Shown here: positions 25,460 through 56,339 of the stretch, one piece after another
Layout: each line of letters starts with the position of its first letter
Numbering within the stretch: position 1 is the stretch's first letter
Origin: a virus
Taxonomy: Duplodnaviria; Heunggongvirae; Uroviricota; Caudoviricetes
Virus record (IMG/VR): IMGVR_UViG_2744054872_000005
Reading direction: 5' to 3' (one strand)
Length of the DNA: 60,920 nucleotides
Position numbers and translations under genes: made by a program
The notes under the pieces: generated by a model
The model's database searches: none
What the model was told of the DNA's origin: nothing
Seen by the model: the letters and a program-made list of their open reading frames with translations, nothing else

Positions 25460-25468
25460 TGCTCCCCC

Positions 25469-26515: not shown

Positions 26516-26726
26516 CCTCTTTACATTCATTACAAATAATTGTGAATATATTCTATTACCGATGTCTGCTATGCGAATACATGCAACCAAGTGCAATGTT
26601 GTATAAAATCTGCCGTGACAACTTCAGTGCTGATAATTCGTGTTAATGTATTTACTTCCTTTGGTCGGGATTTATGTAGCATGCCGGAAAATCTATTTTC
26701 TTCCGGCATTTTTTTATTTGCAGAAT

Positions 26727-27149: not shown

Positions 27150-27391
27150 GCTGTCTGCTCTCCGGTTTTAACGTTGATGGTTGTCACCTGTTCCGCTTCG
27201 GCAATCTCCCGTTCTGTCAGCGTGGCAAAGTTTGCAGCTGCCGTTGTCATGAATGCGCTAATCAGTTCGGGATGTGCTTTCGCATATCCTTCCCCGGCGT
27301 TGCGGTCGATGATTTTTATCGACACCCTTAACCAGTGTTCCGTCAAATCAAGGGCGTGCGATTGTGATTTTTTTGTGTGCTTCGCTGTCAT
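27146..27391 (-). CDS. hypothetical protein (81 aa)
   Basis: ORF between the iteron region and ssb with overlapping stop/start. Confidence 0.4.
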   Translation of the reverse strand: MTAKHTKKSQSHALDLTEHWLRVSIKIIDRNAGEGYAKAHPELISAFMTTAAANFATLTEREIAEAEQVTTINVKTGEQTA

Positions 27392-27442
27392 AGGCTTTAT
27401 CTCACAGCAGTAAATTAAAATTTTTGCGTTTTAACCCTTCAC

Positions 27443-27664
27443 CTGTTCACCTTTTGATATTTTATCTTTTAATTCATAATGTTAAGGGGTGAACAGTTTC
27501 ACAAAAACTATTCACCAACTGTTCACCACTGTTCACCCTTGAAGCTCAATAAACAATCAAAAAGGTGAACAGTGAATAGTTTGGTGAACAGTTCATAAAT
27601 AACTGTTCACCCTATAACATACTGATACAAAAGATATTTATGACAGGGTGAACAGTGGTGAACA
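27443..27664. repeat. iteron cluster: at least 9 copies of GGTGAACAG / CTGTTCACC in both orientations (candidate island replication origin)
   Basis: Copies at about 27443, 27488, 27519, 27529, 27564, 27584, 27603, 27647 and 27656 in an AT-rich stretch just 3' of the primase gene. Confidence 0.75.
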
Positions 27665-27678
27665 GTTATTCCATAAGT

Positions 27679-29511
27679 TTAATTTTTGCTATCGTCATTA
27701 GTGACCGATACACATGATGGCATCCAGTCTTCTGATTCCTCCGTCAGTGTCACGTTTGAACGCAAACCGTGCTTCGTTTTCCGTTTCATATACTCCCTGC
27801 CATATTCCGCCATTGCCCCCGGCATATCTTTACCGAAGCGCGTCAGTGTTACAGGTTTACCAAACCCATGTGCCCTCATATAAGCCAGATAGGCATGATA
27901 GAGATACCTGCGTGGGCTGAATGGCACAATTTCAGCATTACCCACTAACAGGCCATCACACATTACCGACGCCATGAGATAGCCGCAGAAGTCCACCAGC
28001 GAATCCCCCTCTCGCTTTATCGCCAGTGCTTCTTCAGATTTCTGCTGCTCATATAACAGGCGTCTGGCTTCGTCCTGGTCAGCAAACCGTGTAAGCAGAT
28101 GGCGAATCACTACCGCCAGCTCACCTTCTATTTTTTCCGCCAGCATTGGATCGCGTTCGTTCTCCGGTACAACTTCCGAAAAATTGAATATCACCCGACG
28201 ACGTGAGATCCCCCCGCTGCGGTCACTGAATGACATGGCGTTATTGTTAACCGCCAGCACTACTGCCGGAATACGCGTTGAGTAGGGGGCTTTGTGTTTC
28301 GGGTCAATTGCCACCTTGTCACCGCCTGTAATAGCCTTAATCCCTGCCCCATCACCAGCGTAGCGGGTCATATCCGGCATGATAATCAGCGAAAAGCCAA
28401 CCACTAACGCGCGTTCCCTTGCATCTTCCAGCGCCTTCATGCTTGCCGATACTGTGTTGGCCTTACCCGCCAGCATGGTGCAAATCTCCGCCATCACGCT
28501 TTTACCACTTCCCCCTGGACCTGTTACCTCAATGAATAACTGCCAGTCGTACCGGTTCGCCAGCACCATGAATAATGCAGCCAGTACGCGATCCGCCTTG
28601 CGGTCATTCTCAGCCACCGAACGGCGTAACCACTTCCAGAAATTCGGCGCATGTGTTGCCAGCGTTTCCCCCTCTGCTGGTGGGCTGAAAGGTAATTCAC
28701 TGGCAATTAACAACCAGTCGTTTTTGTTATGCTCCCGAAAATTACCTGTTCTGGTATCAAATACCCCGTTACTGAATCCAATCAGGTTACGGGCTGTATT
28801 CCCCATAACAGGCAAACTTAACTTCATGGTATCGACCGCCGATTTAATGGCGTTCTGCGAATAGCTGATCTCCGCATCAATGAAAATCTGCGCCATAGCT
28901 CGCTGTAATTCTTTATCCTGTACTGGCTCCCATACAACGCCGTTGTAATGGTGAACAGTGTCAGAGTCAGCATGAATCGCCAGTTCACCGCCATAATGTG
29001 CCAGGAGAACTTCGCCGCGTTGACTTGCTCCCATCTGGTTAAGCGCCAGTGATGAAGCGTTATCGTCTTTTACCCGCTCTTTTTTCTTTACAGGCAGTTC
29101 AACTACCTTTTTCTTTTCCGCCTGCTCTGCCCGTTCACGTTCCAGATATTCGCGCCAGTTCTCCCGTTTCTGGCTGTGCATTCCTTCAGGATAATAATCA
29201 GCATCCCTGACACCTGCCGCTGCCAGTTTCTGCCCGATGGTATTAACAAGCCCCGGACGCAATAACCCCGCCTGATAGAGACGCACGCGATAGCGTCCGT
29301 CCGGTACGATTTGCAGGTTGTCCAGTTCGGCAAGTTGTTGCTCTCCAAGCCAGACAGGTGGCACGTTATCGCCAGCCAGTCGCCCGTCCTGTTCCTGCCA
29401 CTGATTCGCATGTGCCCACGCATCACTACCCGCAAAAATGATGACTTCCGTCATTTTGTCACGCGGCTGGTATTTTAAATTTGGCGCTTTTTTCATTTCT
29501 GCTCTCTCCAC
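27679..29511 (-). CDS. primase/replication initiation protein (P4 alpha or PICI Pri-Rep-like) with P-loop NTPase domain
   Basis: 610 aa; Walker A GPGGSGKS; placement next to int-alpA and directly upstream of the iterons. Confidence 0.75.
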   Translation of the reverse strand: MERAEMKKAPNLKYQPRDKMTEVIIFAGSDAWAHANQWQEQDGRLAGDNVPPVWLGEQQLAELDNLQIVPDGRYRVRLYQAGLLRPGLVNTIGQKLAAAGVRDADYYPEGMHSQKRENWREYLERERAEQAEKKKVVELPVKKKERVKDDNASSLALNQMGASQRGEVLLAHYGGELAIHADSDTVHHYNGVVWEPVQDKELQRAMAQIFIDAEISYSQNAIKSAVDTMKLSLPVMGNTARNLIGFSNGVFDTRTGNFREHNKNDWLLIASELPFSPPAEGETLATHAPNFWKWLRRSVAENDRKADRVLAALFMVLANRYDWQLFIEVTGPGGSGKSVMAEICTMLAGKANTVSASMKALEDARERALVVGFSLIIMPDMTRYAGDGAGIKAITGGDKVAIDPKHKAPYSTRIPAVVLAVNNNAMSFSDRSGGISRRRVIFNFSEVVPENERDPMLAEKIEGELAVVIRHLLTRFADQDEARRLLYEQQKSEEALAIKREGDSLVDFCGYLMASVMCDGLLVGNAEIVPFSPRRYLYHAYLAYMRAHGFGKPVTLTRFGKDMPGAMAEYGREYMKRKTKHGLRSNVTLTEESEDWMPSCVSVTNDDSKN

Positions 29512-29792
29512 GCGGCAATCATATTTTTCAGTTCCTGTAGTTTTTTATCCACATCCACACGTGACACATGGTTATTTCTGGAAGTCGGGATTTTCCGCCG
29601 GAATCTGCAAATAAAGATCTCCACGTTCAGCGAACTAAGAAATGAATAGCCATCACGGATAAAATACACACGGTCAAACATCAGTTCTTTTACCGTTACT
29701 CTGTTACCGTTCTTATCCAGATAAATAGCGCCGGGGATAATTTGGGGGTGTGCATAACCGCTGGCAGTCAAGCCAGATAAATACGTTCTCAT
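29493..29792 (-). CDS. hypothetical protein (99 aa)
   Basis: Overlaps primase start by 19 nt; no recognisable domain. Confidence 0.45.
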   Translation of the reverse strand: MRTYLSGLTASGYAHPQIIPGAIYLDKNGNRVTVKELMFDRVYFIRDGYSFLSSLNVEIFICRFRRKIPTSRNNHVSRVDVDKKLQELKNMIAAWREQK

Positions 29793-29798
29793 GATTAT

Positions 29799-30119
29799 TT
29801 ATCCCCGATTTGAATCAGTATTCGCTTTCTTTATAGCATTTAATGCATCTGTGGCATTTTCAATGGTGCACCGTAACGAAATATCAAAATGTCCAAGCAT
29901 TGCCAGTAACAAACCGATATTACCCATATCAATGCGCATGGCCTTTTCGTCATATTCCTCATTTTCTGACGCATGCCACATCAGGCTACCAATTGACGCA
30001 ACAGCCATTGATATATTGTCAGTAGCCCCATCCGCAGCGGAATAAACCTTTTTAGCAATATCATGCTCACAGTTAAAATGCGGATTAATCAGGTACTGGT
30101 AATTTGACATATCAGGCAT
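29799..30119 (-). CDS. hypothetical protein (about 106 aa from MPDMSNYQ)
   Basis: Internal ATG at 30119 has AGGGGG 8 nt upstream; the listed ORF extends upstream to 30236 through the operator region. Confidence 0.4.
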   Translation of the reverse strand: MPDMSNYQYLINPHFNCEHDIAKKVYSAADGATDNISMAVASIGSLMWHASENEEYDEKAMRIDMGNIGLLLAMLGHFDISLRCTIENATDALNAIKKANTDSNRG

Positions 30120-30404
30120 GGCACACCCCCTGGCGAATACGGGCGGCGAATACAGCAACACAACCGGACGGGCAGCGGTTACGCGCTTCACGTTCCGTCC
30201 AGGCGGTGACGTGGATGATTTGAGATTCTCCGGCACTCAGTGCCAGAAAACGCCACACAAAGGCCGTTTGTGTGTGTACAAGGTGTGGGGTATGCTGTCT
30301 TACAGCCATAATCGTTACTCCAGTTAACGGTTTGGTTAGAAGCCCCGTTACTGCTCCAACAGTGCGGGGCTTCGTCGTTTCAATTGCTGAATTGCATGTA
30401 TCAG

Positions 30405-30475
30405 CCCTTGTGGTATTCAGATTACATTTTGGTGAATACCATTTCAAGTCTTTTTTGGTATTCACTTTTGTATTA
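30405..30475. promoter_or_regulatory. divergent promoter/operator region with three GGTATTCA / TGAATACC repeats
   Basis: tggtattcag, tggtgaatacc and tggtattcac between the divergent replication operon and the DUF3950-like gene. Confidence 0.55.
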
Positions 30476-30508
30476 CACTGCATCCCGTTATTAATCGGAG
30501 GTGCAAAC

Positions 30509-30814
30509 ATGTCCACGAGTTCTGTTAACAATAAATCACAGCAACTGAATGCCAGATTTCCACATGAAGTAGTGAGTGGCATTGAGGCATCCCTACAGCC
30601 AGGGGAAACTAAAGCGAATTTTATAGTTACGGCTGTACGCGGTGAGATCGCCAGCCGCCAAGCAGAAGGCAGCGGAGAAAATCCCCTTGTGTCGTCACTG
30701 GATGCCCTGGCTAAGGTCGAACAAATCGGCATCAAAGCCGCCGAGGAGATCGGGCAACTCATCACCGTCGCGCGTGAAGAACTCCAGCGACGCAAGGTCA
30801 AAGAGCATGAATAG
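30509..30814 (+). CDS. DUF3950/YlcI-like putative DNA-binding protein (101 aa), candidate island regulator
   Basis: GGAGGTG RBS; N-terminus MSTSSVNNKSQQLNARFPHEVVSGIEASLQPGETKANF aligns with the helper YlcI MSTKNRTRRTTTRNIRFPNPMIEQINIALDQKGSGNF. Confidence 0.55.
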   Translation: MSTSSVNNKSQQLNARFPHEVVSGIEASLQPGETKANFIVTAVRGEIASRQAEGSGENPLVSSLDALAKVEQIGIKAAEEIGQLITVAREELQRRKVKEHE

Positions 30815-30871
30815 CCAATATCAGCGCCATAGTTTGAGGAACGCAGGCGCATTGCTTTACAGGACAGCACC

Positions 30872-31051
30872 ATGAGCGACACAGAATCAACCAAAACACC
30901 ATCACCAACTCGTAAGAGACGACGCAAAAATATAGCGCATGAACATGAATCAGAAAGATTCGCACCTTGTTCGTTTGCTCTTGAGAAATTCCTTAAAGAG
31001 CACAGGAAAAAGCTCTCGTTGCAAACCTTGGAACGAACCAAATCTGACTGA
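30872..31051 (+). CDS. hypothetical small basic protein (59 aa)
   Basis: ORF downstream of the DUF3950-like gene, followed by two terminator hairpins; below the 60-aa cut-off of the ORF track. Confidence 0.3.
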   Translation: MSDTESTKTPSPTRKRRRKNIAHEHESERFAPCSFALEKFLKEHRKKLSLQTLERTKSD

Positions 31052-31118
31052 TCACATTGCCCACCAGCCGCAAATGTGGCATTGTTGGTGATGCGTTCAA
31101 GTTTAGTGTGTATCCATT

Positions 31119-31148
31119 GGCGACCGCCCCCGGTCGCCTTTGTTTTGT
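31119..31148 (+). terminator. rho-independent terminator (first of two)
   Basis: ggcgaccg-ccccc-ggtcgcc followed by tttgttttg. Confidence 0.6.
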
Positions 31149-31724
31149 CACTGAATGCGGTTACCAAAGTAAAACTCAGGCTGATATTCACGTATCAGCC
31201 TTTTTTCTTCTTCCTCCAGCTCACGCTTTTTGCGCTTACATGCCTGTAGCTCCCTCCCCTTCTCGCTGGCACTTATTTGATATTGCTCTTTACGGCGGGA
31301 AAAATCCTGTAATGCACCCCACGGGATACCATAAGCCCCCGTTTTTCTGATACCTGGTATCACATTTCTGAATACCCAGTTACTGAAACGATGGGCGAAC
31401 GTGCCAGGAGTAACAGCTTTCCGACTTCTGGCGATTAGTTTGTAGAACCCTGACTCGCATACCGTTCGCATTGTTTGATTTCCACCTGGGGTGGGTATTA
31501 CACTCCCCCTTTTCATCATCATCGAGACGGCGTAACGCAACCTTGTGATCAACAATTTCCAGCGCAGCGCACACGTCAACGGCAACAAACCACGGATCGC
31601 CGTTCACATACACCACGCGAACGCTCACACCATCAAAGCGCAGAACGACCAGATCACGAATATCACAGAATTTTTTCACTGGACGAGCGTACCCCTTGCC
31701 CGTCACGGCAATATTTTTATTCAT
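31148..31724 (-). pseudogene. Bro-N domain (antirepressor-like) gene interrupted by a +1 frameshift in a G5/C5 run
   Basis: ORFs 31380-31724 and 31148-31588 together read ...PWFVAVDVCAALE...DDDEKG // SVIPTPGGNQTMRTVCESGFYKLI...NVIPGIRKTGAY; frame change at ccccc 31504-31508. Confidence 0.65.
31178..31207 (+). terminator. rho-independent terminator (second of two)
   Basis: aggctgata-ttcacg-tatcagcct followed by ttttttt. Confidence 0.6.
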
Positions 31725-31778
31725 CGCGTTTTACCCTATAGACAAAAACCCCTCGTGATGAGGGGCGTTATTTACTGG

Positions 31779-32036
31779 TTATTGCTGTGTTGTTTTTCCA
31801 GGTTTCCATCCAGGATGCCACTCACCACGGATCCATGCCTGAACCTCTGAAAGTCGATACCCTGCAGCACGTTCACCGATCTTGATACGTCGCGGGAATT
31901 TACCTGCCTGCTCCATTTTCCAGCGTGTTGAGTTTGCCAGCGTGGTAAGTGCTATGCACTCTTTTTCACGAATGAACCGATCAATGTCCTTCATTGTGCG
32001 CAAATCGTTTTCATCAACAAGAGAATAAATTGCCAT
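31779..32036 (-). CDS. alpA: AlpA-family transcriptional regulator/excisionase
   Basis: 85 aa HTH ...GKFPRRIKIGERAAGYRLSEVQAWI; immediately downstream of int. Confidence 0.8.
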   Translation of the reverse strand: MAIYSLVDENDLRTMKDIDRFIREKECIALTTLANSTRWKMEQAGKFPRRIKIGERAAGYRLSEVQAWIRGEWHPGWKPGKTTQQ

Positions 32037-32037
32037 A

Positions 32038-33279
32038 TCACACCACCTCTTTATTAAGCTCGATAACGTTGTTGTTAAATCCTGCTATCGTATTAAGGTA
32101 ATTAACCCACATATTAAGCACCTCAAGTTTTTTCTTTATATGCCTGCTTTTATTGTAAACACCAGCAACCCCTTTCACTTTATGACCTAAAAGAAGTTCG
32201 ACAATATAAGGATCCGCCCCCATATCATTAAGCGTAGTGGAAAATGTGCGCCTGAAATCATGTATGCACCACAAGCCATTAGTATCATGACCAAGACGCC
32301 TGCATATTCTGTTTGCAGCCCCTGTTATTGTCGCCCTTTGCAAAGCACAACCGACAACATAACCGCGATTTTTTGTTTCTGCGTAAAGATTAACGATCCA
32401 TTGTTTTATTCCGTCAGGAACAGGCCTTACTATAGCCTCCTTGTTTTTGCTGTGCTCTTTTGGGACTGTCCATACCCAGTTTTTTAAATCCCATTCGTCC
32501 CAGGTGGATAGCCTCGCCTCCTGCTGTCGGCAACCAAACACCAGGCAGATAACCATTATTCTTCGGTTATATATTGATGACAGAGTTAGCAAATTATTAC
32601 CGTAAGCATAAGACCATACATCAGCGGTTTCATTGATATTAAGAACGCGATCCCTTATACCGGATGAGCGCCCGACATAACTTACGTTAATATCTCCAAA
32701 GGGATCGCACGCGATGTATTGCCTGACGCGACAAAAACGCAACGCCTGTTTGATATCAAGAAAAATTGCACCAGACATAACAGGCGCATTTTTTTTGATC
32801 CTGTCAAAGACGGTAAGCCATGTGTGTAATTTGCACTGTTCTATAGCCATATCACCGATATAGGGGAAGATATGCTTTTCAAATCGTTTTATTAAATATT
32901 CATGCTCTTTTCTGGCTGTTGTGGCGTGATTATCGTACCAGTAAAACAGCGCATCCCTTACGGTCACTGGTTGCATGGTTTTTTCGGCAGCAAGTTTTAT
33001 TTGCCTGCGTGGGTCCAGATTTTCAGCCAGCCATTCACGGCACTGATCACGCATGCGCCTGGCTGTTGCAAGAGACATATCAGGATAGCGCCCAAGTGTA
33101 AGCCATACCGGAGGGGATTCCCTGCCACCAAGACGATAGTAAAAAACAAAGCTGATCCCCCCAACCATGCTTACACGCACAGACAACCCGCGCCCATCCG
33201 CTATTGTTTTTTGTTTGTCCTGCCGTTTTCCGACAAGACTCTTTAACAGTTTGTCACTGAGTTTGTTTTCAATAGCCAT
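32038..33279 (-). CDS. int: tyrosine integrase (P4-type)
   Basis: 413 aa; N-terminal arm-binding-type domain and C-terminal catalytic region (HDFRRTF...LLGHK...Y); adjacent to the island right junction. Confidence 0.9.
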   Translation of the reverse strand: MAIENKLSDKLLKSLVGKRQDKQKTIADGRGLSVRVSMVGGISFVFYYRLGGRESPPVWLTLGRYPDMSLATARRMRDQCREWLAENLDPRRQIKLAAEKTMQPVTVRDALFYWYDNHATTARKEHEYLIKRFEKHIFPYIGDMAIEQCKLHTWLTVFDRIKKNAPVMSGAIFLDIKQALRFCRVRQYIACDPFGDINVSYVGRSSGIRDRVLNINETADVWSYAYGNNLLTLSSIYNRRIMVICLVFGCRQQEARLSTWDEWDLKNWVWTVPKEHSKNKEAIVRPVPDGIKQWIVNLYAETKNRGYVVGCALQRATITGAANRICRRLGHDTNGLWCIHDFRRTFSTTLNDMGADPYIVELLLGHKVKGVAGVYNKSRHIKKKLEVLNMWVNYLNTIAGFNNNVIELNKEVV

Positions 33280-33297
33280 TAAAAGCCCTCAAGAGAT

Positions 33298-33350
33298 TTG
33301 CAATACACACCCATCCCGATCGCCAATTTGCAATACACATTGCAATACAC
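33298..33350 (+). repeat. three direct copies of TGCAATACAC (candidate arm-type sites, int side)
   Basis: tTGCAATACACac ... tTGCAATACACat-TGCAATACACaa, between int and the junction. Confidence 0.6.
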
Positions 33351-33479
33351 AAAACCGCGAAAAACTGGAAGAGTGATGAACGGTCATCAAAAGTATGGAA
33401 AACGACATTCCAGACGCAGCAAGGGTTTCAGTGGAGTTGGCGAACGATGCGGGCAACTACGGTGAGATGATAGACATAA

Positions 33480-36408
<2,929 letters not shown>

Positions 36409-37537: not shown

Positions 37538-37899
37538 ACATCCCGGTTTCTTCCACCATCGCACCGGAAAAGCAACTATGAGGGTAACCCTGCGTCTGTC
37601 AGCACAGTAAAACCCGGTGTGCATCGTTTTTGATTATTCCCGCACACTCACGCAGAAGGAATTCCCCGTCGGGCTACGGTCATGGTTCATGCGGGAATAC
37701 GGCGACGATACAGCGCAGCTAAAAGGGTAATAGACAGAAAGAGCGGTTTATTTCATTCCACAGGATTCTGAGTGTCCCCAACTTCCTCCAATAGTCTGAG
37801 CGTACACCTATATAGTTTTAATTTTCATCAATCCATTTAACTATCGTTTAATTGTTGTCACATAGGATTCCGCCGTTTTTAACAATGCAGGATAATAAG

Positions 37900-38193
37900 A
37901 TGAAAAAAATGTTGTTTTCTGCCGCTCTGGCAATGCTTATTACAGGATGTGCTCAACAGACGTTTACTGTTGGAAACAAACCGACAGCAGTAACACCAAA
38001 GGAAACCATCACCCATCACTTCTTCGTTTCGGGAATTGGACAGGAGAAAACTGTTGATGCAGCCAAAATTTGTGGCGGCGCAGAAAATGTTGTTAAAACA
38101 GAAACCCAGCAAACATTCGTAAATGGATTGCTCGGTTTTATTACTTTAGGCATTTATACTCCGCTGGAAGCGCGTGTGTATTGCTCACAATAA
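37900..38193 (+). CDS. bor: Bor lipoprotein (serum-resistance associated)
   Basis: MKKMLFSAALAMLITGCAQQ lipoprotein signal; lambda Bor-like; opposite strand to Rz as in lambda. Confidence 0.9.
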   Translation: MKKMLFSAALAMLITGCAQQTFTVGNKPTAVTPKETITHHFFVSGIGQEKTVDAAKICGGAENVVKTETQQTFVNGLLGFITLGIYTPLEARVYCSQ

Positions 38194-40042: not shown

Positions 40043-40192
40043 TTCTTGCTCCTCAATCCATTAAAATCTCAGCAATAGTAGTTGTTACGTCCGCCACTGG
40101 CTCAGAGCTGACTATCCGCTAAATTTAGCTCAGTGCCGTAGCTGTGTCAGAACAAACCTAAGCCGAAACCGTTTATTACAAAACAATAAATA

Positions 40193-40621: not shown

Positions 40622-41154
40622 TTTTCCTCACATATGTCATATAGTAAAGGATTATATATACCGTTGTTTTGGACGCTCAAACAGCGAATCAGATCAAATA
40701 AAACGCACATTTGTTAACATTTACACAAAGTCTGCGTGGGATATTCTGAAAGAATATCCATAATGTGGAGAGAATCTATTGAAGTGCATGGTGCCGGGTG
40801 CCTCCCGGTGAATTCAGTACCAGCACCTGAATCCGCGATTATCCCATATACCTACTCGCTGATTGCCCCTCCGCACAGGGGGATTCACCATGCCAGTTTC
40901 TTTTAACAAACTCCCCGCAAACCAGAGAACAGTCAACCGCCTGAATTGTGAAGTATTTAAAAATTTCTCCCGCTAACTGATACCCGGCTAACAGTCTGGC
41001 GTTTTCTTTTTCAGCAACGGGAAAGCAACAACCACCACACCCGCCACCAGCACACCGTCAGCCAGCACTGACATTATCCGGCTGCTGCAATGCCATTCAC
41101 AAAAACAGTAAGCAATCACTTTTTACCGTAACAGGTGATAATCCAGATATGTAT

Positions 41155-41508: not shown

Positions 41509-41618
41509 TACTTAACAGAACTTTTATTTTTGACAAACATATAATATTTTCAACAATATCCTGAGCCAGGTATATTCCAGTATAAGGCTCTGCCGGAAGG
41601 AATCTGGAAGAATGAATA

Positions 41619-41695
41619 TGGCGCGCTGTACTGGATTCGAACCAGTAACCGATTGCTTAGAAGGCAATTGCTCTGTCCGGCTGAGCTAACAACGC
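41619..41695 (-). tRNA. tRNA-Arg (anticodon UCU)
   Basis: 77 nt; clover-leaf drawn by hand: acceptor GCGTTGT/ACAGCGC, anticodon loop CTTCTAA, T-loop GGTTCGAATCC, 3' GCCA. Confidence 0.8.
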
Positions 41696-41800
41696 TGAAT
41701 ACCGATAATGGACCGCTATCGGGGACCCGCCCCCCCCCCGCACCAACAACCCTGTTATCGTGTCGTCTGCTCTTCCTGATAAGCTCATGGCGGTTTGTGA

Positions 41801-41876
41801 TGGTGGCCCTTGCTGGATTTGAACCAGCGACCTGGCGATTATGAGTCGCTCGCTCTCACCACTGAGCTAAAGGGCC
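41801..41876 (-). tRNA. tRNA-Ile2 (anticodon CAU, ileX/ileZ-like)
   Basis: 76 nt GGCCCTTTAGCTCAGTGGTGAGAGCGAGCGACTCATAATCGCCAGGTCGCTGGTTCAAATCCAGCAAGGGCCACCA; close to recalled E. coli ileX. Confidence 0.8.
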
Positions 41877-41912
41877 GGGAGCAGAATAATAACGGTCCGT
41901 AATTAATTCCGC

Positions 41913-44721: not shown

Positions 44722-44877
44722 TTACTCCTCAGGTTCGTAAACTGTGAAGACAGCGACCTCCGTCTGGCCGGTTCGGATTCGTACCTCGCAGAGGTCTTTC
44801 CTCGTTACCAGTGCCGTCACTATGACGGTTAAACAGATGACGATCAGGGCGATTAACATCGCCTTTTGCTGCTTCAT
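44722..44877 (-). CDS. hokD: Hok/Gef family type I toxin (with overlapping mok frame extending to 44934)
   Basis: MKQQKAMLIALIVICLTVIVTALVTRKDLCEVRIRTGQTEVAVFTVYEPEE is essentially HokD/RelF by recall. Confidence 0.9.
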   Translation of the reverse strand: MKQQKAMLIALIVICLTVIVTALVTRKDLCEVRIRTGQTEVAVFTVYEPEE

Positions 44878-45597
44878 AGCCTGCTTCTCCTTGCCTTTCG
44901 GCACGTAAGAGGCTAACCTAGATTTGCCGTTCATAGATTGAGCCTCAGATTAATGTTAAGCGTCTTGCAGGACGCGTAATGTTAACTGGGGCTTTTCTCT
45001 ATCTGCCTTTGGTGTTCATGCCTGAGGCAGATAGCCTCAAGCACCCGCAGCAATTCTACTTAACTCCCGTCACCTCGCCAATATAAAATCAATCAGAAAG
45101 GCGATCCATAAGAACAACAGCAAGACAATAAATTGCCATTACAGCCGCAATAGCTAGCGCACATTTGAGAACCAGCACGACAACCTCCTGTATTGGACGT
45201 ACACCAGTTCTGATAAATATGAGGCTGTCTCATCATTGATTCAATATAACTATTGGGTATAGTTTCTGTGATTTTGTTCTGTAGAAATGGAACACAACAA
45301 CCAGTCACCACCAGCACTTCTTTAAATACGCCAAGTCCGACGCAAGCTAACCTTCTAGTCCGCTTTGAGCGAGGAGCGGACCAAACCCGGCCAACTGACT
45401 CTTAAAGGGGCCGCAGGAATTTTTCGTCTGAACTTTCGAAGCTCCTCTCCCTGAAGACAGAAAACTTCTGTGTGCTGTGGGAATATTGAATCTTTGCATT
45501 AGATATAAATAATTTTATCCCGCCTGAAGTTTACATTATTTTATTTATCTGTTTTTCTAAATCAGACTGCACTCCTTACTTAAATCAGGAGCCAGTC

Positions 45598-46797
45598 ATG
45601 CCATTTGTTATTTATGTGTTTACTATCAGTGCCTTTGCGCTCGGACTCGCGGAATTTGTCCCCATTGGGCTGACAGACGTTATGGCTCAGGGGTTGTGTG
45701 TGGGTGTGGAGCAGACCGGGGCAGCGGTTACAACCTATGCACTGGGGGCAACGTTCGCGGCACCCGTACTGTCTGCGCTGACAGCAAGCTGGAGCCGGAA
45801 AAATGTAATGCTTACAACTGCCGTTGTGTTTACTGCCGGTAGTCTGGCGGCCGCGTTTGCAGCCACATTACCTCAGCTCCTGTTAGCGCGGTTCATTGCT
45901 GGTCTGGGACACGGCCTGTTTCTGGCTGCGGCATCCAGTACCGCAGCTCGTCTTGCTGGACCGGGTAAAGCAGGCAGAGCGGTGGCTGTGGTATTTGGTG
46001 GCTTTACTCTGGCGATGGCAATCGGCGTACCGCTGAGTACATGGTTGGGGGGGGTGGTCTCATGGCGTCCAGTTCTCGGCGCTATTGCCGCTTTTGGCGC
46101 GTTCGGATTCCTTGGACTGTTGTTCGGTATGAAAGATCCCGTACGCAGCGTGCCCGGTGAACATAGTGACTCAGCAATGCAGAATATCGGCATGCTGTTT
46201 AACCGTAAGTTGCTGGCCGGCGCGCTGGTTACGGTGCTGGCGTATGCAGGCTCGTTTACGGCTTACACCTTTATCGCACCTATTCTGACGCAGGTGACAG
46301 GGGTTACCGGAGCAACGGTGAGTCTGTTTATGCTGGTTTACGGTATTACAGCTGCGGTAGGTAATATTCTTGGTGGGAAACTTACCGACAGCATGGGGGT
46401 TAATCGTGCCAATATACTCATCATTAGCGGCATTGTTGTTGTCGTGCTTGGTATGTGGCTGCTGTCATCCTCACCGGTGAGCATGGGCATTCTGGTTGCG
46501 CTGCTGGGTATGGTGACATTTGCCGCAGTGCCGGCACTGCAGGCCCGTCTGATTGGTGTCGCTGAGCAACATGCTCCTCATGCGCATGGTGTTGCTGCCG
46601 GCCTGAATATTGCGGGCTTCAACTCAGGTATAGCGCTGGGATCAGTACTGGGCAGCATTACTATAAGCCACGCCGGTATCGTGTATACCGGTATCAGCGG
46701 TGCGATTGTTTCTCTGCTCGGCCTGCTGTTGCTGCTTGCACAAATCCGTCGCAGCCACAGTCGTAAATTTCAACAGGTTAAAATCGTAGGCCAGTAA
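45598..46797 (+). CDS. MFS transporter (399 aa)
   Basis: 12-TM-type hydrophobic protein with MFS-like loop motifs. Confidence 0.7.
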   Translation: MPFVIYVFTISAFALGLAEFVPIGLTDVMAQGLCVGVEQTGAAVTTYALGATFAAPVLSALTASWSRKNVMLTTAVVFTAGSLAAAFAATLPQLLLARFIAGLGHGLFLAAASSTAARLAGPGKAGRAVAVVFGGFTLAMAIGVPLSTWLGGVVSWRPVLGAIAAFGAFGFLGLLFGMKDPVRSVPGEHSDSAMQNIGMLFNRKLLAGALVTVLAYAGSFTAYTFIAPILTQVTGVTGATVSLFMLVYGITAAVGNILGGKLTDSMGVNRANILIISGIVVVVLGMWLLSSSPVSMGILVALLGMVTFAAVPALQARLIGVAEQHAPHAHGVAAGLNIAGFNSGIALGSVLGSITISHAGIVYTGISGAIVSLLGLLLLLAQIRRSHSRKFQQVKIVGQ

Positions 46798-46808
46798 AGG
46801 GAGGTTAT

Positions 46809-47501
46809 ATGCTTACCCGTGAAAATATGCTTAATGGCACATTTGTCAGGGTGCATGAAGCGCTGCTCCCGGCGAATATGCTCTGGGACGCTGAAAAAAT
46901 ACGCGCATCAATGAACTCTACTCTGGAGGAGCGCCCGACGGGTGCTCCTTTCTGGATATTTGCCTACGGGTCATTGATGTGGAATCCCGTGCTGGCAATT
47001 GAAGAAATGCAACGGGCCCGTCTGAAAGGATGGCAGCGCAGTTTCTGCATTCGTTTGATATCCGGACGAGCGACTCCTGATGTCCCCGGCAGGATGTTAT
47101 CGCTCGACGAAGGTGGAATTACCGAAGGTATTGCGTTCAGACTGCCGGAATCGACTCTTATTAATGAGCTGGAAATTGTCTGGACGCGCGAGATGATAAC
47201 CGGTCTTTACCGTCCGGTCTGGGCAGACGTTTCGCTAGGAAACGGTGAGGAAATTCAGGCGCTGGCTTTCGTATCAGACAGACTGCATCCGCATTATGAA
47301 CAGGACAATCTTACAGCGACCGTAGCATTGAGCATCGCATCTGCCCGTGGAGACATTGGCACGAATGCAGATTATGTATGGAAACTGCAGGCCACTCTGG
47401 GTGCGTTGGGAATACGGGATGATTACGTGAGTGAACTGGCCCTTGCTCTGCATGAGGCTCCCTGTAACGATAAACTTCATCAGCGAGGCGCTTCACTATG
47501 A
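46809..47501 (+). CDS. ChaC-family gamma-glutamylcyclotransferase-like protein
   Basis: FAYGSLMWNP motif and collinear similarity to recalled E. coli ChaC. Confidence 0.7.
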   Translation: MLTRENMLNGTFVRVHEALLPANMLWDAEKIRASMNSTLEERPTGAPFWIFAYGSLMWNPVLAIEEMQRARLKGWQRSFCIRLISGRATPDVPGRMLSLDEGGITEGIAFRLPESTLINELEIVWTREMITGLYRPVWADVSLGNGEEIQALAFVSDRLHPHYEQDNLTATVALSIASARGDIGTNADYVWKLQATLGALGIRDDYVSELALALHEAPCNDKLHQRGASL

Positions 47502-48379
47502 GCCATCTGAGCCATCTGCGAACGTTTCTTGAGGCCTATCGCTCTGGCTCCTTTTCAAAGGCGGCAGAACTACTGGGCATCACTCAGCCCGCGGCGTCAC
47601 AGCATATCCAGTCTCTTGAGACTCTGGTTGGTAAGCGTCTGTTTATCAGGCAGGCCAGAGGCGTGACGGCAACCGAAGCTGCGGATGAGCTTGCCCGCTC
47701 AGTTTCACCCTTCATTGATGGTCTGGAAGAAAAGCTGTCCTCTTTCCGGTCAGGCTCTGTACACGGGGGAACAATTAATCTGGCAGGACCGCCAGATTTT
47801 ATTCATTCCCGGCTTGGGACAGTAATGGCTCCACTAATGAAGGAGGGGTATCGCCTACGCTTTCATACCGGCAATAAGCAACGTATTTATTCCCTTTTGC
47901 ATGACGGGAGCGCCGATCTCGCTGTTACCGCATCTATGCCTGATGACCGTCTGTACGGCTATGCACATCTACTGACTGAACGCATGCTCCTTGTTCATGC
48001 TCCCGCCATGTCAGAGATCATCGGATCAGAACCTGGTGCTGAAACGCTTGCCTCATTACCGCTGATTGCTTATGACGAAGAGTTGCCACTGATTAGAGCG
48101 CTCTGGGCCTCCATGTTTCAGAGAGCCCCTGAGATGCAGGCTACATTCACCATTCCGGATTTACGTATTATCCGCGACTTGGTCTGTGACGGCCACGGGT
48201 GGACAGTGCTGCCGGATTATCACTGTGACAATGACCTGAAAAGTGGTCGCCTGATTTCAGTGACACCTGCAGACCTCGCTCCGACTAATCATCTTTATCT
48301 GGTCTGGAACAAAAGGACGGCTAATAACAGCCGAACCGCCTATGTTCGGGATTACATTCTTAAAACGTTTCCGCGTTGA
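47498..48379 (+). CDS. LysR-family transcriptional regulator
   Basis: N-terminal HTH (AAELLGITQPAASQHIQSLE) plus LysR substrate-binding domain length. Confidence 0.85.
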   Translation: MSHLSHLRTFLEAYRSGSFSKAAELLGITQPAASQHIQSLETLVGKRLFIRQARGVTATEAADELARSVSPFIDGLEEKLSSFRSGSVHGGTINLAGPPDFIHSRLGTVMAPLMKEGYRLRFHTGNKQRIYSLLHDGSADLAVTASMPDDRLYGYAHLLTERMLLVHAPAMSEIIGSEPGAETLASLPLIAYDEELPLIRALWASMFQRAPEMQATFTIPDLRIIRDLVCDGHGWTVLPDYHCDNDLKSGRLISVTPADLAPTNHLYLVWNKRTANNSRTAYVRDYILKTFPR

Positions 48380-48509
48380 TGTTTGAAACGGATGATTGGC
48401 GATGCGTATCATAAGTTACGTATGTCCGCTTCTGGCACAAAGCAGACGCCCACTCTCACGCGAATGCTTTGCCCTTGACTTGCCAACAACCGTATCGCTT
48501 GCTCCGCAA

Positions 48510-49802
48510 CTATGGTTTTTTATTAGAACCTTCGCCACTAAATAAATTATAATAAATTGATTTTATTAGATATCTGTCAGAATCTATATGGTCAGCACGA
48601 GTAGCATGCTCTAATGTTTCAAATGCTAGGGTTTGTGCGGCTTCAGCAAAAATTCCAGGCCAACCCTTACTCAGCATCGACAGTCCTTTAAGTACCCTTA
48701 TCTGAATTTCCCTCATACTGGCACCATCGCGCGCAACAGGTGAGAAAAAGTCTTCAAGTAGATCGTTATTCTGAAGTGGTGCAACATGTACAGAAGGATA
48801 TTTCACTTCTATTTCATCAGATTTATTCTGCGCGTAAGCGGAAAGTATACGTACACCTCTGCCAATGACATCAATGGCGGTTCCAGGATCGTTCACTGCG
48901 GGGGAAAGGGCTCGGCAGGCTATTTCGGCCATGACGCTAAGACAAAATCGGGGGTCCTGAGCAAATGAACGTACATCCGAGACAATAATCGTCTCAAGTA
49001 AATCGGTGCTGATTGATGACTCCTGGCCCTGACTCAGGTACAAAACTGGCGTGGACGGATGTATGAAACTGCCCGGCTGCGCCACGAGGTATACATGACG
49101 GGGATCATTGGTCAGCAGCTTGCTGAGTTTCACCATATCAACATATTCAACATAGCCAATCTTTTTCGGATAAACTGCAACCGTTCCTTTCGGCTGTTCA
49201 TTGTTCTCAAGCCAAGGATATCCGCCGAGACAGGGATTTCTTGCTCTCGCAATAAATGTTTCGATGGCCGCCTGTTCTACTTTTGCCGTTGTCTCACCAA
49301 CCCTCCCCAGAGAGGTCAAATGCTGTATCCAGCGAAGCAATGTGATGAGGATTAAGGCAATGACAACCAGTGTTACAATGAATAAAATGACTCTCCCCCT
49401 TTCTCCATAAGCTCCCATATTGAGGGCAATAATCCCTACCAGACTGAAGAGAAAAGAACCGATGAAGGTGGCCAGTACATTTTGTGTGGTGACGTCTTCA
49501 ACAACTAAACGAGTAGCTCTGGGAGTCACATTAGTAGTGGCTGAACCGTAGGCTGTGACCATGATGCTCAGCGAAAATGTGGTCACTGCCAGCATACTCG
49601 ATGCCAGTATGTTCAGAATGTTATCGACTGCTTCCGCACCAACCTTCACGGAAACCGACTCAGGTATCATTGATTTAAAAAGAATTGATAAAAGGGCCGT
49701 TATTATTGCGACAATTGCGAATAACGTTGCCCTGAACCATAGTTTTTTAAATGTCTGCTTCAGCATCCATTTCCAGCGTGAAATCATTCTGCATTCCCTC
49801 AT
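48510..49802 (-). CDS. DUF2254-like membrane protein
   Basis: 430 aa with N-terminal TM segments; family assignment by recall only. Confidence 0.5.
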   Translation of the reverse strand: MRECRMISRWKWMLKQTFKKLWFRATLFAIVAIITALLSILFKSMIPESVSVKVGAEAVDNILNILASSMLAVTTFSLSIMVTAYGSATTNVTPRATRLVVEDVTTQNVLATFIGSFLFSLVGIIALNMGAYGERGRVILFIVTLVVIALILITLLRWIQHLTSLGRVGETTAKVEQAAIETFIARARNPCLGGYPWLENNEQPKGTVAVYPKKIGYVEYVDMVKLSKLLTNDPRHVYLVAQPGSFIHPSTPVLYLSQGQESSISTDLLETIIVSDVRSFAQDPRFCLSVMAEIACRALSPAVNDPGTAIDVIGRGVRILSAYAQNKSDEIEVKYPSVHVAPLQNNDLLEDFFSPVARDGASMREIQIRVLKGLSMLSKGWPGIFAEAAQTLAFETLEHATRADHIDSDRYLIKSIYYNLFSGEGSNKKP

Positions 49803-49850
49803 ATTGCAGCCGGGATAAATAAATGCCGCCTCTGTGGCGGCATGTTGCTG

Positions 49851-51854
49851 TTAACGAACCAGATGCAGGAAGTGCAGGTGTTTTTCGTACTGGTCCAGTA
49901 TGTCATTAATCAGCTGTTCCTGATTCCAGCCCATTACATCATAATTTTGGCCGCCCTCTTTGAGATAGACTTCAGCGCGATAATATCGATGTTGTTCACT
50001 CTGCTGCTCATCATTATCCAGCGCAGCGAGCGCGAAGGTCGGTGAGTTATACCCGCGAAGCCTCACTTCATATATATAATTCAGCTCGTTGCCCAAATCG
50101 ACTTCAAGGCGAATACGATCCTCGGCGGCGTCACTGATGTGGCTTATCGTTCCCTGCTTGTTAAGTTCCTCCTGAACCAGCGTCATGGCGGGTTGGATAA
50201 TGTCGTCCATAAAACGTTTCACAAGAGAGCGCTTCGGCAAATACGCGATATTGCGTAACCTTCTCTGCCAGGGAATTGGGTTACGTGCAGCCGTAGGAGC
50301 AATAGTCGCCATGCTAAGGCTTTCACGCTTGGTCAAATCCCGACGCAGGGCTTTTAACAGTCCGTATATGGATATTAATAAGATAACTGAGAAGGGCAAT
50401 GCACTCGCTATCGTTACGGTTTGCAACGCACTCAGCCCCCCTGCGATCAGCAGGGCAATAGCAACAACGCCCATGAGCGATGCCCAGAAAATTCGCTGCC
50501 AGACGGGCGTGTTTGCCACCCCACCTGATGCCAGAGTATCCACAACCATTGCCCCCGAATCAGCAGACGTTACAAAGAAGACGATGACCATCGCCATTGC
50601 AATGAATGACAGCACGGAAGAGAACGGGAAATGCTCCAGGAAATTAAACAGGGCAAGCGCAACATCCTGCTGAACGGTATTGGCGAGGTCAGTGGCGCCC
50701 TGGTTCATGATGAGATAGATGGCGCTGTTTCCAAACACCGTCATCCACATGAGCGTAAAGCCGGCGGGAACAAACAACACGCCAGTCACGAACTCACGAA
50801 TTGTCCTGCCGCGGGAAACGCGTGCAATGAACATACCTACAAACGGCGACCATGAAAGCCACCATCCCCAGTATAATAATGTCCAGCCCCCCAGCCAGTT
50901 GCTCGACTTGGGTTCATACGCGTAAAGGTTGAACGTTTTACTCACCAGTTCCGACAGATAACCACCCGTATTTTCCACAAATGACTTCAGCAGAAGCACA
51001 GTGGGACCCAGGCACAAGACCAGCGCCAGGAGCAACACCGCCAGGCCCAGATTAAGCTCAGACAGGATGCGTATTCCCTTGTCCAGGCCGGACACCACCG
51101 AAATCGTCGCTAACCCCGTGATGACCACGATCAAAATGACCTGTACCGTTTCATTGATGGGCACGCCGAAAAGATGGTTCAAACCGGCATTCACCTGCAA
51201 TACACCGTAACCCAGTGATGTTGCAACGCCAAAGACAGTGCCTATCACGGCGAAGATATCAACCGCGTGGCCTATAGGCCCGTAAATGCGATCGCCGATA
51301 ATGGGATAGAGCGCAGAACGCAGCGTTAAAGGCAGACCGTGACGGTAACTGAAAAAGGCCAGAATCAGCGCCACGATGGCATAAATTGCCCATGCGTGCA
51401 GACCCCAGTGGAAGAACGTCAGGCGCATGGCTTCCTTCGCTGCCGCAACGGTCTCTGGAGTGCCGACAGGTGGCGAAAGATAATGCATCACAGGTTCGGC
51501 AACGCCAAAGAACATCAGGCCGATCCCCATCCCTGCCGAAAAAAGCATCGCGAACCAGGAGTGGTAGCTGAAATCAGGCTGCGCATGGTCTGGGCCCAGC
51601 TTTATATCACCGTAACGTGAGAGTCCAAGGAACGTGACGCTCAGTAAAATCAGGGCCACAGCAAGTATGTAGAACCAGCTGGCATTCGTGAAGATTTGTT
51701 GCTGAAGTAGTTTAAAATTTTTGTCGGCGACATCCGGGAATACGGCGGCAAAGGCGACAAGAAGGAAAATTAGCAAAGCAGATGTAAAGAATACCGCTTT
51801 GTTAATCTGGCTTGTAGACTTCTTTGGGGTTGTATCATTTTCACTCATAATCAT
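49851..51854 (-). CDS. BCCT-family transporter (BetT-like, 667 aa)
   Basis: Multi-TM N-terminal two thirds with BCCT-like motifs and long cytoplasmic C-terminal extension. Confidence 0.7.
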   Translation of the reverse strand: MIMSENDTTPKKSTSQINKAVFFTSALLIFLLVAFAAVFPDVADKNFKLLQQQIFTNASWFYILAVALILLSVTFLGLSRYGDIKLGPDHAQPDFSYHSWFAMLFSAGMGIGLMFFGVAEPVMHYLSPPVGTPETVAAAKEAMRLTFFHWGLHAWAIYAIVALILAFFSYRHGLPLTLRSALYPIIGDRIYGPIGHAVDIFAVIGTVFGVATSLGYGVLQVNAGLNHLFGVPINETVQVILIVVITGLATISVVSGLDKGIRILSELNLGLAVLLLALVLCLGPTVLLLKSFVENTGGYLSELVSKTFNLYAYEPKSSNWLGGWTLLYWGWWLSWSPFVGMFIARVSRGRTIREFVTGVLFVPAGFTLMWMTVFGNSAIYLIMNQGATDLANTVQQDVALALFNFLEHFPFSSVLSFIAMAMVIVFFVTSADSGAMVVDTLASGGVANTPVWQRIFWASLMGVVAIALLIAGGLSALQTVTIASALPFSVILLISIYGLLKALRRDLTKRESLSMATIAPTAARNPIPWQRRLRNIAYLPKRSLVKRFMDDIIQPAMTLVQEELNKQGTISHISDAAEDRIRLEVDLGNELNYIYEVRLRGYNSPTFALAALDNDEQQSEQHRYYRAEVYLKEGGQNYDVMGWNQEQLINDILDQYEKHLHFLHLVR

Positions 51855-52188
51855 TTATTCCATTAATTAAATCCGCACTGGATAGAAGGTACTACCTCTC
51901 ACAGAGTAGCAAAGTTCAACTGGCTATGCGGGGTTAATCGGAATGCATGGTGGAATGAGTGCCGATACAAATCATCCTATATTCTAAGGAGTTTTAAGTT
52001 ACTCAGCCTGCCAATTACTGGGGCATTTAATTTGTATGATCTGTATCAAAGCTGGGATATAAGTTAAGTGAAGTATATTAGGCACGAATTACCAGCGTCT
52101 GCTCTTGGCACAAAGCGGACAACCACGCTAGCTCTACCCTGTGCCACAAAATGTCAATTTGCATCTGAACTAATGCACTTTAATCTCG

Positions 52189-52611
52189 TCACTTCAATAA
52201 ATACCGAACATCCCCCTGATAAAACGACAATATGCGCTGCATAACTTCGCTCTTCCGGCACTCGCGACAGATTATGTTTAGGCGACTGTCGTAGCGACGT
52301 ATTTCTCCGTCAGGTAATGACCAGATAAGGTCCGGATCAACCACAACCGGTTTCTTCAGCTTTGCCCTCGATAATTTTTTGCGGGCATTTTGCCAGTCTT
52401 TACGAGCCTGTTCAGACGGGAATAACCCGTAGCCAGAATTGTATACATCGCCACTGGCAACCAGCTCTCTGGCCAGAACGCTCATCAGATATCTTGTTGC
52501 CCCAGTTTTAGCTTCCAGTTGTCGTAACGTCTCGCGCCCACTCTGGCGTACGAGTTCAAGAACCTGCCCTTTAATTTTTTCCCGCTCTTCTTGTGTAAAA
52601 ACTTTTGCCAC
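52189..52611 (-). CDS. hypothetical prophage protein (140 aa), downstream of replication gene
   Basis: ORF following the replication protein; charged, possibly DNA-binding. Confidence 0.45.
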   Translation of the reverse strand: MAKVFTQEEREKIKGQVLELVRQSGRETLRQLEAKTGATRYLMSVLARELVASGDVYNSGYGLFPSEQARKDWQNARKKLSRAKLKKPVVVDPDLIWSLPDGEIRRYDSRLNIICRECRKSEVMQRILSFYQGDVRYLLK

Positions 52612-55800: not shown

Positions 55801-56339
55801 TAAAGGAGTTCTCCACGGGTGAGGTGGAGTGCGTGTGCCGGACACGGGTGAGCATCCGGCACTGACAGTTTACTGAAAGGATATTTCCCTGAAAAGTCAG
55901 ACCATAACGCGAAAGCGCACGGCGAGGTAGCTGGTTCATAGATAGCCTGTCGTTAAATTTTCGTCGACCGTGCGCTTCCGGTTGTGGCAATCCGCGAAAT
56001 GGCGCGGCGGTAAGTATGGCGGGGTTATTCCTTCCCCCGTTGAGGACACCGGGTTGTCAGGTTGACCATACGCTTAAGTGACAACCCCGCTGCAACGCCC
56101 TCTGTTATCAATTTTCTGGTGACGTTTGGCGGTATCAGTTTTACTCCGTGACTGCTCTGCCGCCCTTTTTAAAGTGAATTTTGTGATGTGGTGAATGCGG
56201 CTGAGCGCACGCGGAACAGTTAAAACCAAAAACAGTGTTATGGGTGGATTCTCTGTATCCGGCGTTAATTGTTAACTGGTTAACGTCACCTGGAGGCACC
56301 AGGCACCGCATCACAAAATTCATTGTTGAGGACGCGATA

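Follow-up and report, generated by a model that had tools for sequence, protein, structure and literature searches.

Why do five chromosomal-type genes lie between the late and the early genes of a phage, and what are the palindromes that stand at the edges and in the middle of this block? The question is raised by positions 45358-52120 of virus record IMGVR_UViG_2744054872_000005 (Caudoviricetes), a stretch of 60,920 nucleotides that was analysed at its full length and is called the window here. A sequence-only reading of this DNA had suggested that the block may be prophage cargo rather than chromosome separating two prophage remnants, and had offered repetitive extragenic palindromic (REP)-like elements, terminators or recombination scars as possible identities of the palindromes. 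We find that the block is accessory cargo of one lambdoid prophage at the Qin site (ydfJ'/rspB). Sequence comparison indicates that the palindromes are conserved cassette-boundary sites, putatively serving recombination, and that members of the same family flank the Z/fun hotspot of phage P2.

A five-gene block carried as prophage cargo

A single prophage of E. coli GZEC065 matches the window at 99.97-100% identity; its ends are a truncated ydfJ on one side and int/rspB on the other. The order of this prophage is truncated ydfJ, tail, head, lysis, Q, rusA, DUF968, hokD and the block, followed by DUF977, the replisome organizer, a ydaT-like gene, repressors, dicB/DicF, exonuclease, xis-int and rspB. 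In strain M10 the same five-gene block (99.8% identity) lies between hokD and DUF977 of a prophage at ttcA. Because prophages at two chromosomal sites hold the block at one and the same place in the phage, it travels with the phage. The whole block is found in 296 of 5426 complete E. coli genomes. Pfam bears out the identities that had been assigned to its five genes, which are listed here with the backbone genes on either side:

44722-45046, - strand: hokD toxin gene with sok antisense RNA, conserved backbone downstream of the hotspot (annotated as hokD in identical genomes)
44872-45046: sok (Rfam)
45598-46797, + strand: MFS_1 transporter gene (Pfam)
46809-47501, + strand: ChaC-like gamma-glutamylcyclotransferase gene (Pfam)
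47498-48379, + strand: LysR regulator gene (Pfam)
48510-49802, - strand: DUF2254 membrane protein gene (Pfam)
49851-51854, - strand: BCCT transporter gene (Pfam)
52189-52611, - strand: DUF977 (YdaW-like) gene, conserved backbone upstream of the hotspot (Pfam PF06163)

The right flank is thus formed by the DUF977 gene, with the replisome-organizer gene beyond it, and the left flank by hokD/sok. The DUF977 protein has at least 600 relatives in IMG/VR.

It could be argued that ordinary chromosome, enclosed by two separate prophage remnants, makes up the block, and that its palindromes are chance occurrences or terminator hairpins. The genes are of chromosomal type, the MFS-ChaC-LysR trio is indeed chromosomal in Enterobacter sp. 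BIGb0383, and in GC content (0.45-0.57) the block is close to its surroundings. However, phage gene order is unbroken from the tail genes to int with the block inside, the same intra-phage position is occupied in prophages at two different chromosomal sites, free phages hold other cargo at this position, and the palindromes are 18-fold above chance and not terminator-like. We regard this explanation as scarcely credible. The two-remnant reading is refuted by the single continuous prophage, by the second insertion site (ttcA in M10) and by the free phages with other cargo, and the block is prophage cargo, as had been suggested.

Anatomy of the palindromic sites

Direct reading of the sequence places the three palindromes where they had been reported: GTCCGCTTTGAGCGAGGAGCGGAC at 45358-45381 is an exact 7-10-7 palindrome, GTCCGCT-N10-AGCGGAC, and GTCCGCTTCTGGCACAAAGCAGAC at 48424-48447 and GTCTGCTCTTGGCACAAAGCGGAC at 52097-52120 have one arm mismatch each. 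The latter two do have TGGCACAAAGC in common. A pattern scan of the window (≤2 mismatches) gave four matches versus 0.22 expected, and none of 100 shuffles reached four. The three sites are:

45358-45381, + strand: distal boundary site D (hok side), GTCCGCT-T-TGAGCGA-GG-AGCGGAC
48424-48447, - strand: internal P site, joining two cassettes, GTCTGCT-T-TGTGCCA-GA-AGCGGAC
52097-52120, - strand: proximal boundary site P (DUF977 side), GTCCGCT-T-TGTGCCA-AG-AGCAGAC

Read in the DUF977 direction, P has the general form GTCCGCTTTGTGCCA joined to nnAGCGGAC, and D the form GTCCGCTnn joined to TCGCTCAAAGCGGAC. Once D is reverse-complemented, it and P can be seen to be one asymmetric 24-bp site, GTCYGCT-n-TGWGCSA-nn-AGCRGAC, laid out as a 7-bp arm, n, the 7-bp core TGWGCSA, nn and another 7-bp arm; the P core (TGTGCCA) and the D core (TGAGCGA) differ at two positions. 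The core adjoins the outer (phage) arm, and nn and the inner arm, often followed by ATT, are on the cargo side. P faces the hotspot from the DUF977 side and its inverted copy D faces it from the hok side. The conservation of the asymmetric core is strict, and it extends over more than 40 flanking contexts.

Each site can be read as two halves. At the D site of the window, the outer (phage) half is GTCCGCTTTGAGCGA and the inner (cargo) half is GGAGCGGAC; the same outer half is found with other inner halves and other cargo in fetched loci L002-L005 and about 50 IMG/VR loci. At the proximal P site the outer half is GTCCGCTTTGTGCCA and the inner half AGAGCAGAC, and in all DUF977 loci the outer half is constant while the inner half changes with the cargo. 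The internal P site takes its left half from cassette 2 and its right half from cassette 1 (described below). In other loci this left half, GTCTGCTTTGTGCCA, stands after the BCCT cassette and is fused to five different right halves and neighbours.

Two variants of the site were also seen. A fourth, weaker copy at 40089-40112 (- strand), GTCAGCT-C-TGAGCCA-GT-GGCGGAC, has a core intermediate between P and D and lies between two TolA-like open reading frames (ORFs) in the Q-to-lysis region, a classical lambdoid cargo position; it recurs in L001, L024, L032 and L062, and no partner site was found for it. In L009 (15260-15310), the D-site core is expanded to a tandem run, CTCTTCGCTCTTCGCTCTTCGCTC..., with the unit TTCGCTC.

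Cargo variation between constant outer halves

The variation in cargo was followed in 80 IMG/VR loci (viral contigs) that encode the DUF977 protein. Between the constant outer halves, these loci hold at least 16 cargo lengths or configurations of 1032-6763 bp, and identical 265-bp flanks hold up to four cargo types. Between these flanks, the free phages Tritos and Evi, as well as other prophages, hold cargo that is unrelated. Among the alternatives are a 445-aa protein, an acetyltransferase with a regulator, two hypothetical proteins, and a set of SIR2, nucleoside triphosphate pyrophosphatase, adenosine deaminase and TetR. In each of the phages compared, the cargo starts and stops in the same two palindromes, and homology breaks inside the sites. 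The flank-haplotype analysis shows that exchange is frequent and does not separate exchange at the sites from exchange in the flanks.

The DUF977-hok region is present in about 70% of E. coli genomes, where the shortest cargo is a 290-bp deletion remnant. The sites are specific to hotspots: a complete phage genome has 2-3 of them and an E. coli genome 1-6; in whole phage genomes, as in the whole window, only hotspot copies were found. A scan for P and D outer halves 0-30 bp apart returned chance matches only, without arms.

One common cargo variant, with QueH (epoxyqueuosine reductase), occurs in L246 (E. coli MS20654) at 1557-2400 and in H37-H67. It starts at a variant P site with the core GCGTCA, and the replacement extends past the D site towards hokD. 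In K-12 Qin (L370, J53), a P-type site at 5002-5025 and a D-like site at 5993-6016 were found, the former inside the annotated ydfV ORF adjoining relBE-hokD and the latter after flxA. From its sequence, ydfV-flxA looks like a site-bounded cassette in inverted orientation.

Two tandem cassettes and the source of their genes

Closer inspection of the block reveals that it is two tandem cassettes, linked at the middle P site:

45382-48423, + strand: cassette 1 (cluster K2, 3060 bp between cores), MFS, ChaC-like and LysR (Pfam, cassette clustering)
48448-52096, - strand: cassette 2 (cluster K0, 3667 bp), DUF2254 and BCCT (Pfam)

Both cassettes are found elsewhere. K2 recurs in L373 at 89.6% nucleotide identity with different neighbours, and there too a D-type and a P-type site stand at its ends. 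In Enterobacter sp. BIGb0383 (L371), MFS-ChaC-LysR is an ordinary chromosomal operon without sites (87% identity), and the similarity extends from 115 bp upstream of the MFS gene through the LysR stop. As to capture from a donor chromosome via resident repeats, the evidence is divided: the nearest chromosomal copy of the trio (BIGb0383) has no sites, and a second copy (L373) has them. The fetched loci contain K0 20 times; it occupies two different backbones there and has five different neighbours downstream. The copy in an e14-like prophage context (L008) is 99.7% identical and ends exactly in the sites. A 94% paralogue of DUF2254-BCCT is found in about 2,400 E. coli genomes, in an IS3-flanked island adjoining lpxM-virK-capU (L006, E. 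coli AR435, 6001-9529), and this chromosomal copy has kept a degenerate P site, GTTTGCTTTTGGCACAAAGCATAC. This 94%-identical pair (L006; also L007) was seen on a 57-kb plasmid between IS1 copies as well.

Clustering of 151 cassettes gave 71 clusters. Four of these cassettes (K0, K1, K7 and K10) are each found in more than one backbone and end in the cores, and K1 is common to the DUF977-type and the P2-type hotspots. The backbones that share cassettes and half-sites are Qin/Rac-like siphoviruses, P2-like myoviruses, an e14-like prophage and a chromosomal variable region. Arrays are also linked by D-(15-18 bp)-P doublets, with up to three cassettes in L113. Conservation of the cassette ends as modules outside the half-sites was considered and rejected, as ends are common to just a few pairs of cassettes.

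The same sites bound the Z/fun locus of P2

Among viral contigs, P sites have their second commonest context in P2-like phages, in the G-FI interval. In P2 itself (AF063097), GTCCACTCTGTGCCAAAAGCGGAC at 15335-15358 and TTCCGCTTCTCGCTCAAAGGAAAC at 17432-17455 lie on either side of fun(Z), the P site 60 bp after gene G and the D site upstream of the pF promoter. Both sites flank a SMEK-domain gene in vB_EcoM-12474III, the P site is present in R18C, and in about 13 P2-type loci of IMG/VR the P and D sites bracket other cargo. By these sequence matches, the G-FI interval with P/D sites is evidently the classical Z/fun variable locus of P2, which was probably described by Nilsson et al. (2004). Inverted repeats or hairpins are not mentioned in the open-access papers that cite this study, and a text search with the site sequences returned nothing relevant in the collection of papers covered. 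Z/fun has been named as a hotspot by Rousset 2022 (PMC9122126) and in the iLund4u preprint (10.1101/2024.10.15.618418).

Structural and regulatory roles

Are the sites terminators, as one of the earlier suggestions had it? They are not: there is no T-tract (the three stems are followed by CAAACCC, GCCCACT and AACCACG), and a scan of 45000-52400 returned 14 terminator-like hits, none of them at the three sites. Neither a sigma-70-like hexamer pair nor a terminator was found at the sites, and a sigma-54 promoter (TGGCAC) was rejected on reading the sequence, which has no -12 element at the required distance. No Rfam family matches the sites or the doublets. We know of no convincing similarity to dif/XerCD, Tn3 res or gix/hix sites.

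The stems fold at only -9 to -14 kcal/mol. The arms within a site show 12 compensated versus 207 broken positions, against 12.2 in shuffles, and a selected hairpin, in RNA or single-stranded DNA, was rejected for this lack of compensatory changes. The absence of arm covariation indicates that the arms behave as sequence-specific half-sites. Of the three identities suggested earlier, recombination scars come closest; the palindromes are more exactly described as conserved boundary sites at which the homology between cargoes breaks off.

The apparent switch point lies in the core of the site

To locate the exchange within the site, we used 195 distinct (flank, site, flank) instances. Site positions 1-8 are invariant for 10 of the 14 upstream contexts that have two or more partners (the other four have variants that are mostly rare), and positions 16-24 vary with the partner in all 14. 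In the reverse test, positions 16-24 are invariant for 8 of 11 downstream contexts. Because positions 1-8 are kept with the upstream and positions 16-24 with the downstream flank, these comparisons show the apparent switch to be confined to the 7-bp core: the outer arm and the core stay with the phage, and nn and the inner arm go with the cargo. Since inheritance accounts for many of the junctions, the truly informative cases are those in which a cassette occurs in several settings, namely K0, K1, K2 (L373), K7 and K10.

This confinement bears on an account in which the 24-bp sites are short conserved linkers, their primary role regulatory or none, and cargo is swapped by RecA, by RecET/Red-type annealing or by fork template switching. 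Several observations fit it. No dedicated recombinase was found, the cargo-side arms are sometimes degenerate, and these lambdoid phages have an exonuclease VIII-type protein (annotated in Tritos; the 823-aa homologue in the window matches only the exonuclease domain in Pfam). There is also a precedent in the promoter-early stem-loop (PeSL), where conserved motifs on either side of variable ORFs are proposed to bring about modular shuffling (PMC2839356, PMC4122927). On the other hand, each arm offers a stretch of identity as long as the core, yet the switch is core-limited, and recombination through short homology does not require the strict asymmetric core seen in more than 40 contexts. To our knowledge P2 is without an annealing recombinase, yet it uses the same sites, which also counts against linkers. 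We consider this account, the chief rival, rather unlikely.

We slightly favour, at a little better than even, the proposal that cargo is exchanged at the 24-bp P/D sites by core-limited cassette exchange of the site-specific type. A tyrosine-recombinase core site has two inverted arms and a 6-8 bp asymmetric exchange region, and the sites have this plan (7 + n + 7-bp core + nn + 7). From the inverted conserved half-sites, the 7-bp asymmetric core and the absence of selection for pairing we infer, by analogy, the anatomy of a core site for a conservative site-specific recombinase of the tyrosine type. As the P and D cores differ at two positions, the two ends of a cassette would not be expected to recombine together; P would pair only with P and D only with D, which would result in double-site cassette exchange, and an internal P site would permit the tandem addition of cassettes. 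A circular BCCT-DUF2254 cassette would have the junction GTCTGCTTTGTGCCAAGAGCAGAC.

The inner arms of the BCCT cassette (AGCAGAC/GTCTGCT) and L033 had prompted the idea that sites such as the middle and right ones are hybrids, formed when a circular cassette with one perfect palindrome integrated. As a general rule this was rejected, as the inner arms do not co-vary. A linked recombinase was likewise rejected, with no recurrent family among 1029 ORFs near 141 genomic sites and no HUH/Y1 motif in them.

Wider distribution of the sites

A genome-wide search found a P-like 30-mer in 3716 of 5426 E. coli genomes, the median number of places per genome being 1 and the highest 6. In the wider scan at the species level (one genome per species), the figures refer to the matches listed; among these are many Enterobacterales together with metagenome-assembled genomes (MAGs) of Alpha- and Betaproteobacteria. 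In MAGs of Pseudolabrys, Xanthobacteraceae, Hyphomicrobiales and Nitrosomonadaceae, the arms of the 24-mer are extended to ATGTCCGCT/AGCGGACAT. The repeat has a density there of 0.36 sites per kb of fetched loci and forms clusters between ordinary genes that resemble bacterial interspersed mosaic elements (BIMEs), head-to-tail, with 2-3 units, linkers of about 21 nt and the loops TTGGCACAA, TTGGGGGTG or TTGACCCAA (loci L248-L367, e.g. L265 660-840, L333, L356 and L316). In Klebsiella spallanzanii and Phytobacter, sites and doublets lie between ordinary accessory genes. The earlier suggestion of REP-like elements thus fails for E. coli and holds for the family at large, in the clusters of Alpha- and Betaproteobacteria.

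These clusters invite another explanation, namely that the sites are a REP/REPIN-like palindrome family maintained in other Proteobacteria by an HUH transposase of the REP-associated tyrosine transposase (RAYT) type, that cargo arrives already flanked from donor chromosomes, and that in the phage the repeats serve as mRNA-end or insulator hairpins. The tandem 24-mers between ordinary genes in the MAGs agree with this, as do the doublets between ordinary genes in K. spallanzanii and other Enterobacterales, and the D-18 bp-P doublets fold as one long hairpin (-28.2 kcal/mol, z = -3.9); the first, sequence-only reading had already proposed REP-like elements. In E. coli, however, the sites are not repetitive. 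No compensatory covariation gives a sign of pairing selection, no HUH/Y1 motif was found in 1029 neighbouring ORFs, and the nearest chromosomal copy of MFS-ChaC-LysR (L371) is without such repeats. A structural role alone would, moreover, leave the core-limited homology break unaccounted for. We judge this explanation to be quite improbable.

Weighing the cassette-exchange reading

In its widest form, the reading takes the 24-bp sites to be the places at which a so far unrecognised cassette-exchange system, integrase-less or acting in trans, recombines. It would have an inverted heterospecific P/D pair, core-confined exchange and attC-like D-18 bp-P doublets, would move accessory and defence genes among P2-like, Qin/Rac-like and e14-like phages and chromosomal variable regions, and its sites would be kin to a pan-proteobacterial repeat family. 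We put forward this combined reading tentatively, as one that is possible and open to considerable doubt.

Several observations weigh against the core-limited cassette exchange that is favoured above. No recombinase gene is linked to the sites: among 1029 ORFs clustered within 2.5 kb of 141 genomic sites, the most frequent family, an ABC-type binding protein, is near 14 of 120 loci, and no HUH + Y motif was found. P2-like and lambdoid phages have no recombinase in common. Neither an empty hotspot nor a single unoccupied site was found, and the QueH variant, unlike other cargo, has its end elsewhere than at a D site. On the cargo side, some arms can hardly be recognised (e.g. AATATAGTC and TGAACTGAT), and the inner arms co-vary at 4 versus 85 positions over the 71 cassette clusters, compared to 3.6 with shuffled partners. 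With many junctions inherited, the core-limited switch rests on about 10 informative combinations of cassette and backbone. Finally, the multi-copy 24-mer repeat in Alpha- and Betaproteobacteria suggests different or additional biology.

Other features of the host prophage

The sequence-only reading had also proposed that the phage genes would, without the island, form a single collinear prophage of about 47 kb. This estimate is only roughly right, as the portal gene, too, is split, by a satellite-like element of 10.8 kb. This element (about 22,670-33,475) leaves portal fragments at 21884-22666 and about 33475-34308. It has genes for a tyrosine integrase (about 32037-33278, annotation only), a DNA primase, an Icd-like protein and SSB, and encodes its own major capsid, head-decoration and small terminase proteins; within it, at about 25,350, the window has a 13-bp deletion relative to GZEC065. 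Further lambdoid cargo in the prophage includes iss (a Bor-like serum-survival lipoprotein) adjoining the lysis genes and two tRNA genes (Arg, Ile) downstream of Q, iss and the tRNAs being at about 37,899-38,192 and 41,600-41,880. The small RNA STnc100 is at 40732-40922 and DicF at 56114-56165.

Significance

Most newly found anti-phage and accessory genes come from hotspots in phages and prophages. As to the fast turnover of cargo at fixed positions, the preprint of Rousset et al. (10.1101/2021.01.21.427644) goes no further than speculation about cos ends. The 24-bp site defined here marks exact exchange points common to two unrelated hotspot types, P2 Z/fun and DUF977-hok, and provides a simple sequence rule for delimiting prophage cargo cassettes. 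If cassette exchange at these sites is real, it would offer a concrete mechanism for the rapid turnover that Rousset et al. left open, and the site makes the question accessible to experiment (through the core, recombination-deficient hosts and the binding protein). For annotation, the consequence is that this block is prophage cargo, and the case illustrates how ordinary transporter and regulator operons become phage-borne.

Comparison with known systems

It is instructive to compare the sites with the attC sites of integrons. In both systems, cargo units that look promoter-less are bounded by imperfect palindromes and occur in arrays, and the D-18 bp-P doublet is attC-like in that two inverted simple sites surround a variable centre and can be folded into one hairpin. 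In contrast to attC, there are no R''/R' boxes (RYYYAAC/GTTRRRY), the arms being GTCYGCT/AGCRGAC; the cassette boundary lies in the centre of each 24-bp site rather than at one end; and the cargo genes have both orientations. As recombinases, the window region has the integrase of the prophage (Pfam Arm-DNA-bind_2 + Phage_integrase) and that of the satellite (annotation only), and no recombinase was found flanking the fetched cassette arrays.

An inverted pair of sites with short asymmetric cores that differ from each other is also found in heterospecific lox/FRT pairs and in the pdif modules of Acinetobacter plasmids. In tyrosine-recombinase systems, a difference between cores blocks recombination between the sites and permits exchange of like with like. 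The arms of the present sites are only 7-9 bp long, and we know of no similarity to dif/XerCD arms or to lox/FRT.

The sfx sites of the Rci shufflon (IncI plasmids) have the 7-bp core GTGCCAA (PMC4176322), a sequence that the P core and the base after it spell out in many P sites, e.g. GTGCCAAG at 52097-52120. The two kinds of site also share an asymmetry, one arm being well conserved and the other poorly. However, the conserved right arm of sfx, TCCGGTACGTGG (TCCGGTNNGTGG), is absent, the right arm here being AGCRGAC(ATT); there is no rci gene, and Rci only inverts. The identity of the 7-mer is no more than a lead and may be due to chance.

The REP/BIME elements and REPIN doublets of E. coli are likewise short imperfect palindromes, single or in inverted doublets with a short spacer. 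They differ in number, as there are 1-6 copies of the present site, all in prophage hotspots, versus hundreds for REP. The sequence also differs from what we take to be the REP consensus, with no GTAG foot.

The PeSL of T4-like phages is a composite promoter-terminator in direct orientation, for which homologous recombination is presumed (PMC2839356, PMC4122927). Both it and the present sites are short conserved motifs that flank variable ORFs in plastic regions, but the latter have no promoter or terminator signature and form an inverted pair with different cores and core-confined exchange.

The closest relative is the Z/fun locus of P2, where the P and D sites are the same and one cassette (K1) is found in both hotspot types. 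The P2 locus lies between the tail genes G and FI, while here the sites enclose two metabolic and transport cassettes between DUF977 and hokD of a lambdoid prophage.

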